A DNA stretch of 13,330 bases, from positions 1 through 13,330 of the IMG/VR virus record IMGVR_UViG_2547132278_000017, one strand, 5' to 3'. Under the pieces are notes generated by a model. The model was not told where the DNA came from. It made no database searches and saw only the letters and a program-made list of their open reading frames with translations. The stretch comes from a virus. Lineage: Duplodnaviria; Heunggongvirae; Uroviricota; Caudoviricetes. Positions 1-12,039 of this stretch are shown one piece after another. The first letter of the stretch is position 1. Every line of letters begins with the position of its first letter. Position numbers and translations under genes: made by a program.

Positions 1-483
1 TCAATATTCCAGACAGACTCGCGGTTCATTTAAGCATCCATGCCCGCCCTGAACTCCGGGCACACCGTAAGTAAAATCAGCCACCCACAGCTGGTCAGGT
101 CGTTCTGCCACGAACTGACGGTTTACGCGGTCGCCTGCGGCAACGGCTTTCCGGCTGATGGTCGTACGGACCTTTTTACCCCGGAGAACACCGGCAAGTC
201 CCATAACCGCCATGAGACGTGCCACAGTGCATCTGGCCACTCTGATACCTTCCCGTAACAACTGACGCCAGACTTTACGCACACCGTATACCTTGTGATT
301 TTCATCGTATACGCGCTGTATCTCTTTCTTCAGCCAGTCATCGCGCTGCGCACGGGCACTGCGTTTATCCGGATGATGTCGCTGTTGCTGACAGTGGTAA
401 TACGTTGACGGGGCAATATGCAGTTCGCTGCATAGCGGTCCGACCCCGTACTGCTCACGCAGCTTATCCAGCAGTGGCATCAT
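1..483 (-). pseudogene. IS629 transposase OrfB, truncated to 160 aa (DDE catalytic domain lost)
   Basis: The ORF reads ...RPDQLWVADFTY, the start of the DDE domain in IS3-family OrfB, then diverges into GVPGVQGGHGCLNEPRVCLEY and stops at 1-3. IS3-family OrfB is normally about 290-300 aa, so the second Asp and the Glu of the catalytic triad are absent. Confidence 0.7.
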
Positions 484-806
484 TTTTTCCAGAGGCGGTC
501 GAACTCCGCCTTCGCAAAATAAGCGGAAGCCTGGCGAAGGATATCGTTACTGCGGCGCAGTTCACGATTTTCACGTTCCAGCTCTTTCAGACGCTGACGT
601 TCAGCGGTGGTGAGCCCTCCATCACCGCCCCCGGTATCCCGCTCATGCTGGCGAACCCAGACACGCAGAGTCTCCGGCGTACAGCCAATCTTTGGAGCAA
701 TGGAACAAATTGTCGCCCATTGTGAGTCATATTCGCTCTGACTTTCCAGAACCATACGGACTGCCCGTTGACGGACTTCGGGGGAAAAACGAGTATTTTT
801 AGTCAT
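480..806 (-). CDS. IS629 transposase OrfA (108 aa, helix-turn-helix plus leucine-zipper region)
   Basis: The 108-aa [26 protein letters not shown]...[29 protein letters not shown] matches my recollection of IS629/IS1203 OrfA. It lies about 55 bp inside the IS terminus, and its stop overlaps the next ORF. Confidence 0.9.
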
Positions 807-860
807 CCTGTTTACCTCTTTCTCAGGAAGTTTAGTCTCCAGGATTCCCGGGGCGGTTCA

Positions 861-1418
861 GCTCAACCCCATATAGTTGTAACACTTGAGCCAAACCCTT
901 GGGCCGCTTTTTACTTTGATATTAACATTGCTAATACAGGGAACGCACCTGCCTATAATGTTGAGGTTGTGTTTGATCCTCCACTAGTAAATGCGGAGCA
1001 TAGAGAAAAAAGTGAGATTCCGTTTAGTAAGGTAAGCGTGTTAAAAAATGGGCAATCACTTACCAGCAATCTCTGTAAGTATGAACAAATCAAAGATCAA
1101 ATTTATAATATTAATATAAGCTGGGCAAGCAAACCTAAATCAAACGATAGAGAAACAAATGAATATGTGTATGACATGGCGACATTTGAAGGAATAAGTT
1201 ATCTAGGAGCGAGAAGCCCATTGACGCAAATTGCAGAACAAATTAAAGGTATAAGAGAGGATTGGAAACCTATTGCACAAGGAGCTAAAAAAGTAAAAGC
1301 AGACGTATATACTTCAAGCGATAGAAACGAAGAACGCACGTATCTGCAAGAGCAACACGATTTGGCAATAAAAAGGAGAGATGAGAAAAGAGAAAAAAGA
1401 TTAGAGTCTGGTGAATAA
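861..1418 (+). pseudogene. 3' fragment (185 codons) of an unknown AT-rich gene interrupted by the IS629 insertion
   Basis: The reading frame is open from the first base after the IS terminus (861) to the stop at 1418. There is no in-frame ATG with a ribosome-binding site until very late (MATFEG...), so the N-terminal part must lie beyond the IS. The C-terminus is lysine/glutamate-rich. No recognisable motif. Confidence 0.5.
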
Positions 1419-1466: not shown

Positions 1467-2291
1467 TTAATCACTTATTTTTGACAACAGATAATTACTG
1501 AACGCACTGCAAGTGACTAACATAAATTTAGCTTCAGCTAAGGTAGGATTTACATCTTCTTCTGTTAGCGCATGACGTATTCCACCCTGATCACTTGTAT
1601 AACCATAGAGCTGACTAAAAGCGCCTTTCATTGCAGAGTGTATATATCCTTTTTCCTCTATAGCTTTAAGACAAGCCCCCAAGGTTCCTTTATCATTGCC
1701 CGTGATTTTCCTGCATAAAGATTCAATTGCAGAGATAGACTCTTTAATCGAGTTTCTGTAGTCTGGCTGCTCTCTATCCGTCATTAGTTGTAACGCCCTT
1801 TCGAAATGGCTACGCGATGAATCAGTGCCATTATCAACTGCGTTCTGAACACTTTCAATTTCGTTATCATTTGAAATAGGAGTAATACAACCATTTATTA
1901 TGGTATAACCAACGCCATGCTTTTTAAAGATGGAATTGAGATGCTTCGATAGATTAATATATGAATTAGTTCTCTCAATGATGAACTCAATTAAATCATA
2001 TACCAAATACCATGCTTCCCCATATATATAATCTCGGATAGCAGTCAGCAACGTCTTATCACTTTTGTATCCACTTTCATAACGAGGAATATTATCCGCA
2101 GGTTGATTTAGATAATATATCCACACAGACTGCGCACATTTTGTTGCTGTAGCAGTTTGACGATTGTTAGTCCAAAGGAAAAGATATAAGCAATTCCACA
2201 ATGCCATGCGTGTATCAGAATTAAGATCATTCAGCTGGACATGCTCTCTAACGTCAACATGACCATACCTCACAGAAAATGGCTTTATCAT
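1467..2291 (-). CDS. Hypothetical 274-aa protein; possible AbiJ/HEPN-like abortive-infection-type C-terminal domain (tentative)
   Basis: Long ORF in an AT-rich segment with a Shine-Dalgarno-like AGGGGA 4-6 nt before the ATG at 2291. The C-terminal region ...SIKESISAIESLCRKITG...SAMKGAFSQLYGYTSDQGGIRHALTEEDV...AKFMLVTCSAFSNYL resembles, from memory only, HEPN-type domains of AbiJ-like proteins. Not verified by any search. Confidence 0.6.
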   Translation of the reverse strand: MIKPFSVRYGHVDVREHVQLNDLNSDTRMALWNCLYLFLWTNNRQTATATKCAQSVWIYYLNQPADNIPRYESGYKSDKTLLTAIRDYIYGEAWYLVYDLIEFIIERTNSYINLSKHLNSIFKKHGVGYTIINGCITPISNDNEIESVQNAVDNGTDSSRSHFERALQLMTDREQPDYRNSIKESISAIESLCRKITGNDKGTLGACLKAIEEKGYIHSAMKGAFSQLYGYTSDQGGIRHALTEEDVNPTLAEAKFMLVTCSAFSNYLLSKISD

Positions 2292-2825
2292 TCTTCCCCT
2301 GCCTGATTGTTATGTTCGTTTAAATTATGCAGTCTAAGTTTGATACAATCATATATTAAGCAATAGAATCCATAAAGCCCCGTTGGTGGTAAGACAACAA
2401 GCGGAGCCTCTTGCGACTTCATCAGGGTTATGTCAGTTAGTGAGGCTTATCAGGATGACCATGTACCCAAGGGGAGCGAGGCCGAACCGCTGGCAGAGCT
2501 TGCATATGGTCTGCAAGTACCGTGACCACCATAAACCTGTTTATCCCCTGCGGCGTCTCGCGACGGCGACAGAATGGGGGCATCGGGCTAAAATGCGCTG
2601 CACTAAAAGTTTTGGGATTGTTTAGAGACGGTGGCTACGTCATAGCTTTCAAGTTGAGTCAGTACGTGTTTGACGCTTGGAACGACACGCCGCTATGAGT
2701 TAACATCCCAATTACCACTATCAACCACAGCGGCTTTTTCAAGGGACATAACAGAGCATTTCTTACAGGCAAAAGAGACAGATTTAATCGTCTAACTAAC
2801 TGTATTGTAAGGAATTTAGTAACTT

Positions 2826-2848
2826 GGTGCGAAGGCCGGACTCAAACA
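2826..2848 (-). other. attR-like site: degenerate copy of a tRNA 3' end (T-arm/acceptor/CCA) marking the satellite's left boundary
   Basis: Minus-strand sequence TGTTTGAGTCCGGCCTTCGCACC(A) closely matches the 3' end of tRNA-Leu (leuX-type ...GGTTCGAGTCCGGCCTTCGGCACCA) with one substitution and one missing G. P4-type integrases integrate into tRNA 3' ends, and the int gene is at the opposite end in the compatible orientation. Confidence 0.55.
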
Positions 2849-3044
2849 TCAAAATAAGTTAATGATAAAAAACAAATAATAAAACACAACAATGAAATAT
2901 GCCCCCTTTTGTGCCCCCACTGTTTTTCTGACCAATCTATTTTCAGCCCATCAATAAATCGGAAAGTTAAATCATTTTTAATCAGTAAGTTTGGATCCGT
3001 AGCTCGGATCCAAACCAGTGCATCTTTTATCCACATAAAAAATT

Positions 3045-3340
3045 TTTTTTCGAAAGAACTGTTCACACTGTTCACCTTTCTGTTTTCTCCTTTTATTTCA
3101 GAGTGATAGGTGGTGAATAATGGGTGAAGGGTGAACATTCGATTCTTCACCTCCGGCATTCTGCCGATGTGACTCATACCGGTGATTAATCCTCCGCACT
3201 GAAATCACTCAGGAAGAAAAAAGTTTTTTTTGATTTGATTGTTCACACTGTTCACCTTTCGTTTTTCTCTTTTAATTTCAGTGTGATAACGGGTGAATAT
3301 ACGGTGAAGGGTGAACAGTGGATTGTTCACCTTCGGGGGA
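3045..3340. repeat. crr-like cis replication region: two direct repeats of about 115-120 bp (spaced 180 bp) each carrying several TGTTCACC-type iterons
   Basis: ctgttcacactgttcacctttc...tttcag(a/t)gtgata...ggtgaa...ggtgaagggtgaaca...ttcacc occurs at 3059-3160 and again at 3239-3340. The octamer TGTTCACC/GGTGAACA is the type I iteron bound by P4 alpha protein. The position immediately downstream of alpha matches P4 crr. Confidence 0.7.
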
Positions 3341-5729: not shown

Positions 5730-6050
5730 TCAGTGCAGTACCGGCGCTTTTATGTGACGGGCACAGAGTTCATCCATCACAACCAGCCCGAGAAAGGACA
5801 GCGACGGCGCGGCCTTCAGGGGGCCGGATTCCATTAAATCTTCCAGCAGGGCACAGGCTATCTGACGCCCTTTTTCCTCACCGTGCTGGCGCAGATAAAA
5901 GCCTTCCAGCTCAGCGGCGATGGCCGCCTCCAGTGACTCAAGGGTGAGATGCGGGTAGCGGTGCTGACGTTCGCACACGGTCAGCCAGGCACAGGCGACA
6001 GCGCGACGGTAAAGGGCAGCGCGTAAGACGGGCGGTAAGGGTGTTTTCAT
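5730..6050 (-). CDS. cnr: Cnr-like copy-number regulator (106 aa), immediately upstream of alpha
   Basis: Position and size match the P4 cnr gene preceding alpha in the left operon. Assignment rests on synteny and length, not on a motif. Confidence 0.7.
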
Positions 6051-6185
6051 TTGTTTTCCTCCCTGTGACAGATGACTGCATTCCGTGCCGGTTGCATTAA
6101 CTGATAAGGCATATCTGCGTCTCCTGAAGACGTGCGTATCCCTGCGCGAATACGCACATTTAATTTTTCGGGTGTCGTTTTTTAA

Positions 6186-6641
6186 TTACAGATAATTGCG
6201 GTAACTGTTATCCGGGGTGGTTTCCGGGTCAGGCTCCGTGCGGGGAATTTCCCGCCATTCCCGCGCCACCGGTGCTGCCCGGCTGACCGGAACAGTGTCC
6301 TGCGGGTAAATATCCAGATATTTTTCCCGCCATTTCTGTAATTCCGGGTCTCCGGCCATTTCTTTCAGTACCGCATGCCGGTTTACGGGGCTGCGTTTAA
6401 ACAGGTCAGGACGGTCACAGGTAAATTCCCGCAGAAAACGCCCCAGCGGGATGTCTGTGGTGCGTCCGTCAGCGAGGATACGCACAAGGATACTGAATTT
6501 ACGGCGGTACGGGTTCCAGACAATGTCCGGGCAGCGGTACGGCATTTCCCACGGAATACCGTCTTCCAGAATGCCGACCACGGCCACATCGGGAAAACCG
6601 GCAGAACGGTAAATCTCACCGGGCTGGGGAAAATCAAACAT
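6186..6641 (-). CDS. P4 orf151-like protein (151 aa), function unknown
   Basis: 151 codons in the position of P4 orf151 between eps and cnr. The start overlaps the stop of the upstream gene by 8 nt (operon coupling). Confidence 0.8.
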   Translation of the reverse strand: MFDFPQPGEIYRSAGFPDVAVVGILEDGIPWEMPYRCPDIVWNPYRRKFSILVRILADGRTTDIPLGRFLREFTCDRPDLFKRSPVNRHAVLKEMAGDPELQKWREKYLDIYPQDTVPVSRAAPVAREWREIPRTEPDPETTPDNSYRNYL

Positions 6642-6921
6642 GCGTCCTGTCTCCCCGGTCTTTCTGCTGGGCGAGAAAATCGCGGCACAGGCCTTTGGCT
6701 TTCAGCTCATTCAGCACAAAATCAATATCTTCATTCAGGTAGCTGAAAATATGCGGAATGTAGAGCTGATGCAGGCCGGAGAGTTCACGGTGAATCAAAT
6801 CACCCCCAACAAACCGGGATACGGCGCTGGCGCGGTTGAGCTTATGGTAAGCCTCAATGCTGAGGTGTTCACGGGCGTCATGACGTGCTGAGACGGTCTG
6901 AGGGGCTTTTTTATTACGCAC
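6634..6921 (-). CDS. eps: Epsilon-like protein (95 aa, GTG start), predicted helper-prophage derepressor
   Basis: The tracked 177-aa ORF has no ribosome-binding site at its ATG. An internal GTG at 6921 is preceded by GGAGGT with a 5-nt spacer and gives a 95-aa product in the P4 eps position (upstream of orf151, downstream of the immunity region). Start choice is an inference. Confidence 0.6.
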
Positions 6922-7189
6922 GGGACACCTCCACCACCGGCAGACGGGCAGCAAGGGAGAGCACATAGTCTCGGACAAGGGAACGGCGGGCACTGCGTTC
7001 ATCACCGGCGACGGTGCGAAGCATACAGATACGGGGATGACGGTCTGCACGACGGACAGCCGCAAACACAAAGACAAATTCAGGGTGTGAGGGGGTAAGG
7101 GTTGTAGCCATAAGGCAGCCTCCTTCGAGTAGCAAATAACTGCTATCGCCGGAGTTTCCACGCTCAATGGCGATAGCCCAGACGGGGGT

Positions 7190-7265
7190 GGAAATACCGG
7201 CCTCGAAGAATACCGGCCAGCCCGGAGGCTGCCCCGCCTGAGCTACCATTGACTCTGCGGCATAA
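7190..7265 (-). ncRNA. cI: Candidate CI-like immunity RNA region (seqB) with complementary seqA-like (about 7385-7400) and seqC-like (7113-7133) targets
   Basis: The plus-strand segment 7113-7133 (aggcagcctccttcgagtagc) is complementary to two blocks within 7199-7233 (ggcctcgaag...ggaggctgcc), split by about 15 nt. A second copy of the ccttcgag core sits at 7391-7399, just downstream of the putative early promoter. The arrangement mirrors P4 seqA/seqB/seqC, but boundaries are not defined. Confidence 0.35.
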
Positions 7266-7444
7266 TGAGCGGACGCGGGCAGGATGCACGGAATGCCATC
7301 TGCACGACTGACCACACACCACACCATAATCTGGCGCTCTGTGGCGTTGATTGCGACACAAAAAAAGACGCATGGCGCGTCATATGTCGCCTTCGAGTTA
7401 CACGGGTTTCCACGCCCGGCTGCCGATTTTGCGACAGCGGAAAA

Positions 7445-10633: not shown

Positions 10634-11575
10634 ATGAAGTTAAATTATTTTACTTACACAATAACCGACAATAGAAATCAAAAAGTTTATTTTGATAACA
10701 TTTCAGATATTATCAAAAATTTTTGTTTGCATAGAAAAAAATCTCTTTTTGAGAAAAACAAAGGGTTAAAAAGACTGTACCTAGCCATGCCCACCTCATT
10801 TGATGGCATATACTATTTGACCACGCCAGCAATTACTACAGCATTTAAAGCTGTAGATAGAGCAACTGGTGTAGTAAATGATTTGGCTTCTGTACTTGGT
10901 AAAGATAGTCTAGAGAAAGTTACTTACTTTTTTATTGACCCTAAACATTCAATAATCGGAGTAACCGAGGGTAAAGGTAATGCTGACATTGATGATTTGC
11001 AATTCTTCATTAACGAAATAATTAATCAAGATTTTCAATCACATATTTATACCTTCGAGCTTTGCACATTAAAAATAGAAATCAAATCTACATCGGCTAC
11101 AAAATTCAAACTCATCACTGAAGCACGAGTGAAGTTAAATAATGATTCTGTTGGGGATGTAATAAATGGATTGTTTGGCAAGGCCCCATCAGACAATATG
11201 GAAGTGCAAATTATCGTAAAAAGAAAAAATAGAAAAGAGAATGTGAAAGATTATATACAACCATTACTCTCAAGTTTATCTTCATCTGAAGATAAAGAGT
11301 ATGCAGAAATTTATTTCAGAGCCAAGGCAGATGAATTTCAATCAAATGTAAAAGAGTTTATTTTAGATAAGAATCAGAATATTTTTGATATAATAAACCC
11401 TCATCTCAAAGTAAAGATTGAAGATCAAATACTTGAAAAAAGATACAAAAACCAAGTTGTGATAAGTGAATTGAGTACATACGCACAAAATTTTACTGGA
11501 CGCATACATTCAGGTATTATTGATCCAGTGTGGAATGATCTAAAAACAGAAAGTTACCACAAAGCAAAAAGTTGA
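10634..11575 (+). CDS. Cargo protein A: 313-aa soluble protein of unknown function, AT-rich, candidate sensor or enzymatic component of a two-gene defence system
   Basis: Uninterrupted 313-codon ORF in an AT-rich island (roughly 25-30% GC by eye against about 55-60% for the backbone). No P-loop, HxH or other motif I can recognise. Its stop at 11573-11575 abuts the ribosome-binding site and start of the next gene. Confidence 0.8.
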   Translation: MKLNYFTYTITDNRNQKVYFDNISDIIKNFCLHRKKSLFEKNKGLKRLYLAMPTSFDGIYYLTTPAITTAFKAVDRATGVVNDLASVLGKDSLEKVTYFFIDPKHSIIGVTEGKGNADIDDLQFFINEIINQDFQSHIYTFELCTLKIEIKSTSATKFKLITEARVKLNNDSVGDVINGLFGKAPSDNMEVQIIVKRKNRKENVKDYIQPLLSSLSSSEDKEYAEIYFRAKADEFQSNVKEFILDKNQNIFDIINPHLKVKIEDQILEKRYKNQVVISELSTYAQNFTGRIHSGIIDPVWNDLKTESYHKAKS

Positions 11576-11583
11576 GGATGACA

Positions 11584-12039
11584 ATGCTTACTAACCAAGC
11601 AATAGTAAAAATTAATATAGCCACATGGGGTGTAAGCATTCTTACTGCTGTTATTTTTACTCTCATTGCGGTGTTTTGTGAAAACCAATACATAGAGATA
11701 GAACCTGAAGGTATAATTGGCATCGCTACACTATTAGGTACTTTTAGTTTCACAATGACAGGATTCATTGCTGCAATTGGTGCTTATATCATATCAGTGT
11801 CTGATAAAACTTCTTTTCTAAAGTGGCGACAGCAAGGATATATAAATATCTTCTACCATCTATATGGGCAGAGCATTGTTTTTTTATTGGTCACATTTTT
11901 ATTATGCATGGTGGCTATCATAATGCCATTTAATGTTGCATTGACAATTTTGAAATGTGGTTTATACATTCTCATCCTTAATATTATTCACATCATATTA
12001 ATAACTGTAATTACACTCGGTCAAATGCAGAAAAAATAA
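11584..12039 (+). CDS. Cargo protein B: 151-aa integral membrane protein with four predicted transmembrane helices, candidate membrane effector
   Basis: ATG at 11584 preceded by GAGGA with a 5-nt spacer (the tracked ORF starts at an unlikely TTG at 11572). Hydrophobic stretches at about residues 12-31, 44-72, 97-116 and 120-145, with a basic C-terminus (QMQKK). Translationally coupled to cargo A. Confidence 0.75.
   Translation: MLTNQAIVKINIATWGVSILTAVIFTLIAVFCENQYIEIEPEGIIGIATLLGTFSFTMTGFIAAIGAYIISVSDKTSFLKWRQQGYINIFYHLYGQSIVFLLVTFLLCMVAIIMPFNVALTILKCGLYILILNIIHIILITVITLGQMQKK

Follow-up and report, generated by a model that had tools for sequence, protein, structure and literature searches.

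The gene on the minus strand at 1467-2291 of the window (the whole stretch of 13,330 nucleotides of viral DNA that was analysed) encodes a stand-alone two-domain AbiJ-type protein of 274 aa, made up of an AbiJ_NTD4 domain at the N-terminus and a domain with a predicted HEPN fold at the C-terminus. We consider that the protein probably acts as a stand-alone AbiJ-type abortive-infection factor, whose RNase-like HEPN domain would be held by the N-terminal domain until a phage cue arrives. A preliminary description of the window had read the C-terminal region as HEPN-type and AbiJ-like, and this interpretation proved to be essentially right, given the AbiJ_NTD4 profile match and the HEPN helix layout of the predicted model. 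The family is already catalogued as a phage-defence candidate (PADLOC PDC-S32); to this we add the HEPN fold, a variant motif shared across the family together with its register, the standing as a single-gene candidate and, tentatively, a likeness of the N-terminal domain to the death fold.

The gene and its two domains

We first analysed the gene itself, which had been described as a 274-aa reading frame in a strongly AT-rich segment. Both points held: the GC content is 0.35-0.39 over positions 801-2400, as compared with 0.53-0.66 in most of the satellite that lies to the right, and the listing of open reading frames gives a complete coding sequence with an ATG start. A Shine-Dalgarno-like AGGGGAAG (2293-2300, minus strand), as read from the sequence, ends one base before the ATG, while a scan of the upstream region returned no significant promoter, without enrichment relative to shuffled sequences. 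Since the N-terminus fits the consensus of the family, MxxFSQRxG, and none of the invariant family residues is missing in the alignment, the gene is intact. The protein is identical to RefSeq WP_000594911.1, labelled "AbiJ-NTD4 domain-containing protein" in E. coli genomes, and shares 100% identity with a protein cluster of 590 member sequences. When one genome per species was scanned, homologues with 36-78% identity were found in at least 586 species representatives, indicating that 1467-2291 is far more than a chance open reading frame. In E. coli, the gene is horizontally acquired.

Profile searches carried the AbiJ part of the earlier assignment, as AbiJ_NTD4 was matched above its cut-off, and did not carry the rest, as no HEPN or Abi_C model matched the 274-aa protein. 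The AbiJ_NTD4 match (PF18863; E 5.8e-27; 95.5 bits against a gathering score of 34 bits) places residues 4-153, encoded at 1833-2282 on the minus strand, on profile positions 2-151 of 152, and the same profile was matched in all 51 aligned homologues. This domain, composed of five helices, a beta-hairpin and a final helix, is presumed to be the sensor or regulatory domain. In PADLOC, the PDC-S32 models PDLC04997 (E 5.6e-104) and PDLC04996 (E 1e-86) covered residues 3-272, and they were the only models to match at E <= 1, so that the AbiJ system model was not among the matches. The PDC set comprises 145 PADLOC candidate families, chosen since their members were found inside loci of the BREX, DISARM or type I R-M systems, and the PDC-S32 entry, to which our protein belongs by a full-length HMM match and by its identity with WP_000594911.1, gives no mechanism. 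Searches of PHROGs yielded no match for the protein itself, and sequence searches of the PDB, with the single protein and with a profile, gave no meaningful match. PDC-S32 is nowhere mentioned in the literature searched, which contains no experimental report on the family; in the same literature, AbiJ-NTD4 appeared just in the 2013 HEPN survey and the 2026 SadR paper.

The closest described architecture is that of STM4504/CBY_0614 (NF046078), the 2013 prototype of an AbiJ-NTD4 domain joined to an AbiJ HEPN domain, with a similar length (a 281-position profile). Its collinear similarity to our protein is weak, spanning residues 116-198 at 15.8 bits, far below the cut-off of 150 bits, and the two therefore belong to separate families. 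The single-protein abortive-infection system AbiJ (Abi-859) of Lactococcus lactis, whose divergent HEPN domain was found mainly by structure, is likewise built from a variable N-terminal domain and a HEPN domain, whereas no sequence match between the two is detectable through the PADLOC models. Escape mutations from L. lactis AbiJ fall in the phage ssDNA-annealing protein.

The HEPN assignment was then addressed with the predicted model. The C-terminal helical bundle (residues 157-273; 1473-1823, minus strand) comprises helix H1 at 157-170, H2 at 178-197, an insert at 204-214, H3 at 219-229, a short helix at 238-243 and H4 at 251-273. This order fits the canonical HEPN topology, a four-helix up-and-down bundle with an insert between helices 2 and 3 (PMC3710099), and the predicted model thus shows the C-terminal domain to have the HEPN fold. 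Model confidence is lowest in the motif loop at 230-240 (pLDDT <50). A Pfam scan with the C-terminal 125 residues alone gave no HEPN or Abi_C match at E <= 10, and Foldseek with the whole predicted model found nothing; of 51 homologues, 11 matched DUF4145, a HEPN family, with a best E of 0.0086, and 3 matched Abi_C with a best E of 0.23. A helix-2 acidic residue has a role in HEPN domains (PMC3710099), and the alignment indeed places the invariant E184 and E190 inside the predicted helix 178-197. They lie in a near-invariant helix-2 block, P176-D-Y-R-N-S-I-K-E-S-I-S-A-x-E190 (1722-1766, minus strand), which, judging from the alignment and the helix assignment, likely provides the acidic residue of helix 2 and contributes to the active-site or substrate surface.

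The N-terminal "sensor" domain, previously linked to no fold, may be death-fold-like. The tentative likeness is to the pyrin domains of NLRP5, AIM2, MNDA, NLRP6, NLRP7 and NLRP4F, to the DEDs of FADD, caspase-8 and PEA-15, and to the CARDs of NLRC4 and Dark. Such a domain would suggest activation by assembly, and we can envisage a one-polypeptide "death-fold + HEPN" effector, in which a pyrin-like six-helix bundle would drive trigger-dependent homotypic assembly of HEPN domains with the Arg moved beside the catalytic His. Although we hold this specific scheme to be distinctly unlikely, it would, if true, provide a bacterial counterpart of signalling by cooperative assembly together with a new variant of the HEPN RNase site.

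A variant HEPN motif and its register

We next compared the motif region with that of Abi_C. The canonical Rx4-6H spacing had been described as not obvious, with R and H adjacent in GGIRHA. These letters are residues 236-241, and the adjacency extends to the whole family. In an alignment of 131 family members from many phyla, H162, N180, K183, E184, S187, E190, G237, R239 and H240 are invariant (131/131), and D177, R179, H218 and Y229 are each kept in 130; D234 is found in 125 and S233 in 113 of the 131. Positions 243-246 are occupied by L/T, E/D, E/D and S/P/D, respectively, with no conserved His in the 131 sequences. Since R239 and H240 are adjacent and no conserved His follows at 243-246, the canonical Rx4-6H motif is missing throughout the family. 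Even plasmid and phage relatives at 23-34% identity retain the R-H pair, within the local pattern [S/N]-[D/N/S]-x-x-G-x-R-H. Alignment and profile probing identify S233-D-Q-G-G-I-R239-H240 (1572-1595, minus strand) as the putative variant catalytic motif, the counterpart of R-N-x-x-G-x-A-H in Abi_C.

The register was set by scoring designed variants against Pfam Abi_C (PF14355), for which the gathering score is 24 bits. Residues 150-274 of the wild-type protein gave no match. The S233R+D234N variant scored 17.7 bits, with residues 231-269 aligned on profile positions 44-82, and the further exchange R239A raised the score to 19.4 bits, while H240A gave no match. As a second case, an Arthrobacter plasmid relative scored 15.7 bits as the wild type, 19.5 bits with S226R+S227N and 21.1 bits with S226R+S227N+R232A, and the match was lost with H233A. 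The scores thus suggest that H240 corresponds to the catalytic His, D234 to the polar residue after the Arg and G237 to the motif Gly, whereas S233 would stand at the motif-Arg position and the invariant R239 would take the place of the Ala preceding the His. We also considered the opposite register, in which R239 is the canonical motif Arg and its downstream His has been lost. A His placed at +6, either as H240N+E245H or as E245H alone, gave no Abi_C match, whereas the S233R/D234N register did, and this reading was rejected. As all of the scores remained below 24 bits, the C-terminal domain is Abi_C-like and not a formal member of Abi_C; the R-N-x(3-5)-H motif of that family is replaced by a pattern in which H240 and the polar D234 are kept and the Arg position is Ser. 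The combination of a kept His and a replaced Arg also accounts for the failure of Abi_C and HEPN sequence models to detect the family. A scan of viral contigs for Abi_C members, using back-translated RNEYGDAH, returned one false match in a tape-measure-like reading frame.

A precedent for the function of this motif is SadR, an Abi_C protein of Staphylococcus aureus with the motif RNEYGDAH, in which R225A, N226A and H232A each abolish the ssRNA RNase activity and phage defence (PMC13590631). [quoted passage not shown] In contrast, SadR carries R-N-x5-H with an essential Arg where our protein has S-D-x-G-G-I-R-H, its N-terminal domain is different, and our protein falls below the Abi_C threshold. 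Just 3 of the 2,815 Abi_C proteins in the SadR study carry an AbiJ-NTD4 domain (PMC13590631). In HEPN domains of the AbiV/AF0298 type, the motif His is lost and the Arg is kept, whereas our probe suggests the reverse; furthermore, AbiV works with an RNA antitoxin, and none is evident for the 274-aa protein.

Based on the AbiJ model of Anantharaman et al. and the SadR precedent, we propose the following course of events. In the uninfected cell, the N-terminal domain would hold the HEPN domain in check. Once a cue derived from the phage acts on the N-terminal domain, the HEPN domains would be released or would assemble, probably into dimers like those of other HEPN RNases, and the active domain would cleave RNA, leading to a stop of translation and to aborted infection or cell stasis. 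In catalysis, H240 may serve as the general base, the invariant R239, possibly together with R179, may substitute for the canonical motif Arg (Ser here) by providing a positive charge, and D234 with the helix-2 residues E184 and E190 may complete the site. Because the motif Arg is Ser and the equivalent R225A variant of SadR is inactive, the predicted activity hangs on a putative compensation by R239. The C-terminal domain could instead be a non-catalytic HEPN domain that binds RNA or nucleotides, as do MtlR and the HEPN domains with which nucleotidyltransferases bind their substrates, and the protein would then be a regulator or sensor. We regard this as unlikely: a His at the catalytic position in 131 of 131 sequences with an invariant Arg beside it, and a polar cluster of R179, N180, K183, E184, E190, H162 and H218 that is typical of an active site, speak for catalysis, other active-site arrangements have been proposed for AbiV and AF0298 (PMC3710099), AbiV is reported to be an rRNA-degrading RNase, and the family is found in a mobile, defence-like context rather than in a metabolic operon. 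A family that keeps the catalytic His and replaces the supposedly essential Arg in at least 586 species amounts to a natural test of the flexibility of the HEPN RNase site.

Family distribution and neighbouring genes

The family is widespread and patchy across phyla, with relatives in Proteobacteria, Bacteroidota, Planctomycetota, Acidobacteriota, Cyanobacteria, Chloroflexota and Clostridia and in one archaeal MAG, and its members reside on mobile islands, on plasmids (24 records) and in a few phages. One of the phage relatives is gp056 of the Rhizobium phage RHEph01 (L097:454-951), a 165-aa protein that retains the beta-hairpin region and the HEPN half with an S-N-x-x-G-x-R-H motif; as RHEph01 is a lytic Autographiviridae phage, gp056 raises the question of whether such proteins serve phages as decoys, as weapons or in anti-defence.

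Conserved neighbours were searched for by clustering the four genes on either side in 80 loci. As a result, a conserved operon partner was rejected, since the largest cluster occurred in 7 loci at varying positions; the loci share no partner gene, and this is a single-gene family. Among 137 immediate neighbours, we found 5 HTH genes, 3 DNA methylases, MADS mad3 (5) and mad8 (3) and a few SMC/ABC or AbiEii-like ATPases, while the majority were unrelated. Recognisable defence genes are thus a minority of the immediate neighbours in the 80 loci, which counts against the abortive-infection reading.

The Klebsiella and Enterobacter homologues (loci L085-L092; 60% identity; 6001-6831) present a different setting, in which the gene in every case lies 38 bp downstream of a co-oriented tyrosine integrase of ~430 aa and is followed by a resolvase and then by proteins of 610 aa and about 1,580-1,590 aa without recorded Pfam matches. 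The left chromosomal flanks differ among these loci, which occupy different chromosomal sites, and together with the integrase and resolvase this is the signature of cargo of an integrative element. The loci look like an uncharacterised integrative element, maybe with further defence cargo; no tRNA was found there, and the integrase is unrelated to anything in the window. The placement immediately after the element's integrase, with a resolvase on the other side, the plasmid relatives beside recombinases and the toxin MazF, and the ability of SadR to restrict plasmid uptake as well (PMC13590631) would all suit a toxin or addiction-type module that mainly stabilises its mobile island or excludes competitors, rather than a dedicated anti-phage system. 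Such a role appears quite improbable to us, as the gene has no conserved antitoxin partner and is kept at >=99% identity in E. coli where the island has lost its integrase, and integrase-proximal cargo slots are typical for defence genes; it would in any case be compatible with anti-phage activity.

In the window, the gene converges with the DUF8453 gene (858-1418, plus strand), and the description of the latter as interrupted by an IS was accurate. The DUF8453 product, annotated in RefSeq as DUF8453 domain-containing or hypothetical, matches the phage family phrog_11802, which has no assigned function (E 4.3e-79), at profile positions 49-228 of 230, so that ~48 N-terminal residues are missing and the 5' end is truncated; in all of the E. 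coli loci examined, this end is replaced by IS sequence. In the window, the insertion is an IS3-family element (1-857, minus strand), with orfA at 480-806, orfB running off the left end and, at 409-525, the ALIL frameshift pseudoknot (Rfam, 120 bits). At the same junction, IS30 or IS600 remnants are present in other E. coli strains, which marks the left side of the DUF8453 gene as an IS hotspot. The 48-nt gap between the convergent stop codons contains a G+C-rich 8-bp hairpin (about 1428-1448; RNA fold -19.3 kcal/mol, z = -3.4 against shuffles), possibly a terminator shared by both genes, which a strict terminator scan did not call because of its poor T-run.

This arrangement, with the genes 48 bp apart, a hairpin shared between their stops and co-occurrence in all E. 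coli loci examined, would allow a two-gene system that is now disabled by the IS3 truncation of the DUF8453/phrog_11802 partner. We judge this to be a very remote prospect: the DUF8453 neighbour has no homologue in 88 of 88 other family loci, the 60%-identity homologues adjoin different genes, PADLOC models the family as a single gene, and the convergent orientation of the two genes precludes co-transcription.

The leuX locus and the satellite

Finally, the window was placed at the leuX (tRNA-Leu CAA) locus by megablast against complete E. coli genomes. In L002, a genome without the satellite, tRNA-Leu is followed after 533 bp by the AbiJ-NTD4 gene and then by the DUF8453 gene, an IS3 element, other remnants and the fec operon, while the genomes L001 and L003 carry a P4-like element (integrase, hotspot, psu, delta, sid, primase) between the tRNA and the AbiJ-NTD4 gene. 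Positions 2292-2830 of the window are identical to L002, where an intact tRNA-Leu(CAA) follows directly, and base-by-base comparison shows that the homology ends inside the 3' end of the tRNA. The attR marker is accordingly the remnant of this 3' end, TGGTGC-GAAGGCCGGACTC with a 1-nt deletion (2825-2843, minus strand), as supported by the comparison with L002, the repeat in L001 and the tRNA call in L002; the attR copy reads TGGTGC-GAAGG as against TGGTGCCGAAGG. In L001, which shares the same junction, the satellite is flanked by an exact repeat of 14 nt, and just these 14 nt repeat the attL side exactly.

The flank identical to L002 and the tRNA remnant establish that the AbiJ-NTD4 gene, 534 bp to the left of attR with the satellite to the right, lies outside attR and is no satellite cargo. 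The earlier view of a defence candidate adjacent to, and outside, the satellite is hence supported, given the full-length PDC-S32 match. The gene is present in 468 of 5,426 complete E. coli genomes (8.6%), always on the chromosome and with >=99% identity in 467. We suggest that it may be part of an older, AT-rich island remnant linked to leuX, and that the P4-like satellite would have inserted later between the gene and tRNA-Leu.

The satellite carries genes of its own that bear on defence. Its hotspot between psu and int contains two genes within 10634-12039 (plus strand), of which the first is AT-rich and RexA-like (Pfam RexA, E 5e-11, residues 1-232) and the second codes for a RexB-like membrane protein (PADLOC RexB, E 6.2e-6), so that the window includes a second, separate abortive-infection candidate. 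The AbiJ-NTD4 candidate and the RexAB-like cargo at leuX illustrate the accumulation of defence genes at a single tRNA site. The immunity region of the satellite encodes a C4 antisense RNA (7166-7253, minus strand; 76.7 bits) and the Hfq-binding RNA isrK (7361-7438, minus strand; 71.3 bits), as detected with Rfam and as expected in a P4-like element. Just inside attR, an AT-rich reading frame of 111 aa (2842-3177, minus strand) gave no Pfam, PADLOC or NCBIfam match; in strain F2_81, RefSeq calls a 225-bp part of it "integrase", an annotation that looks doubtful.
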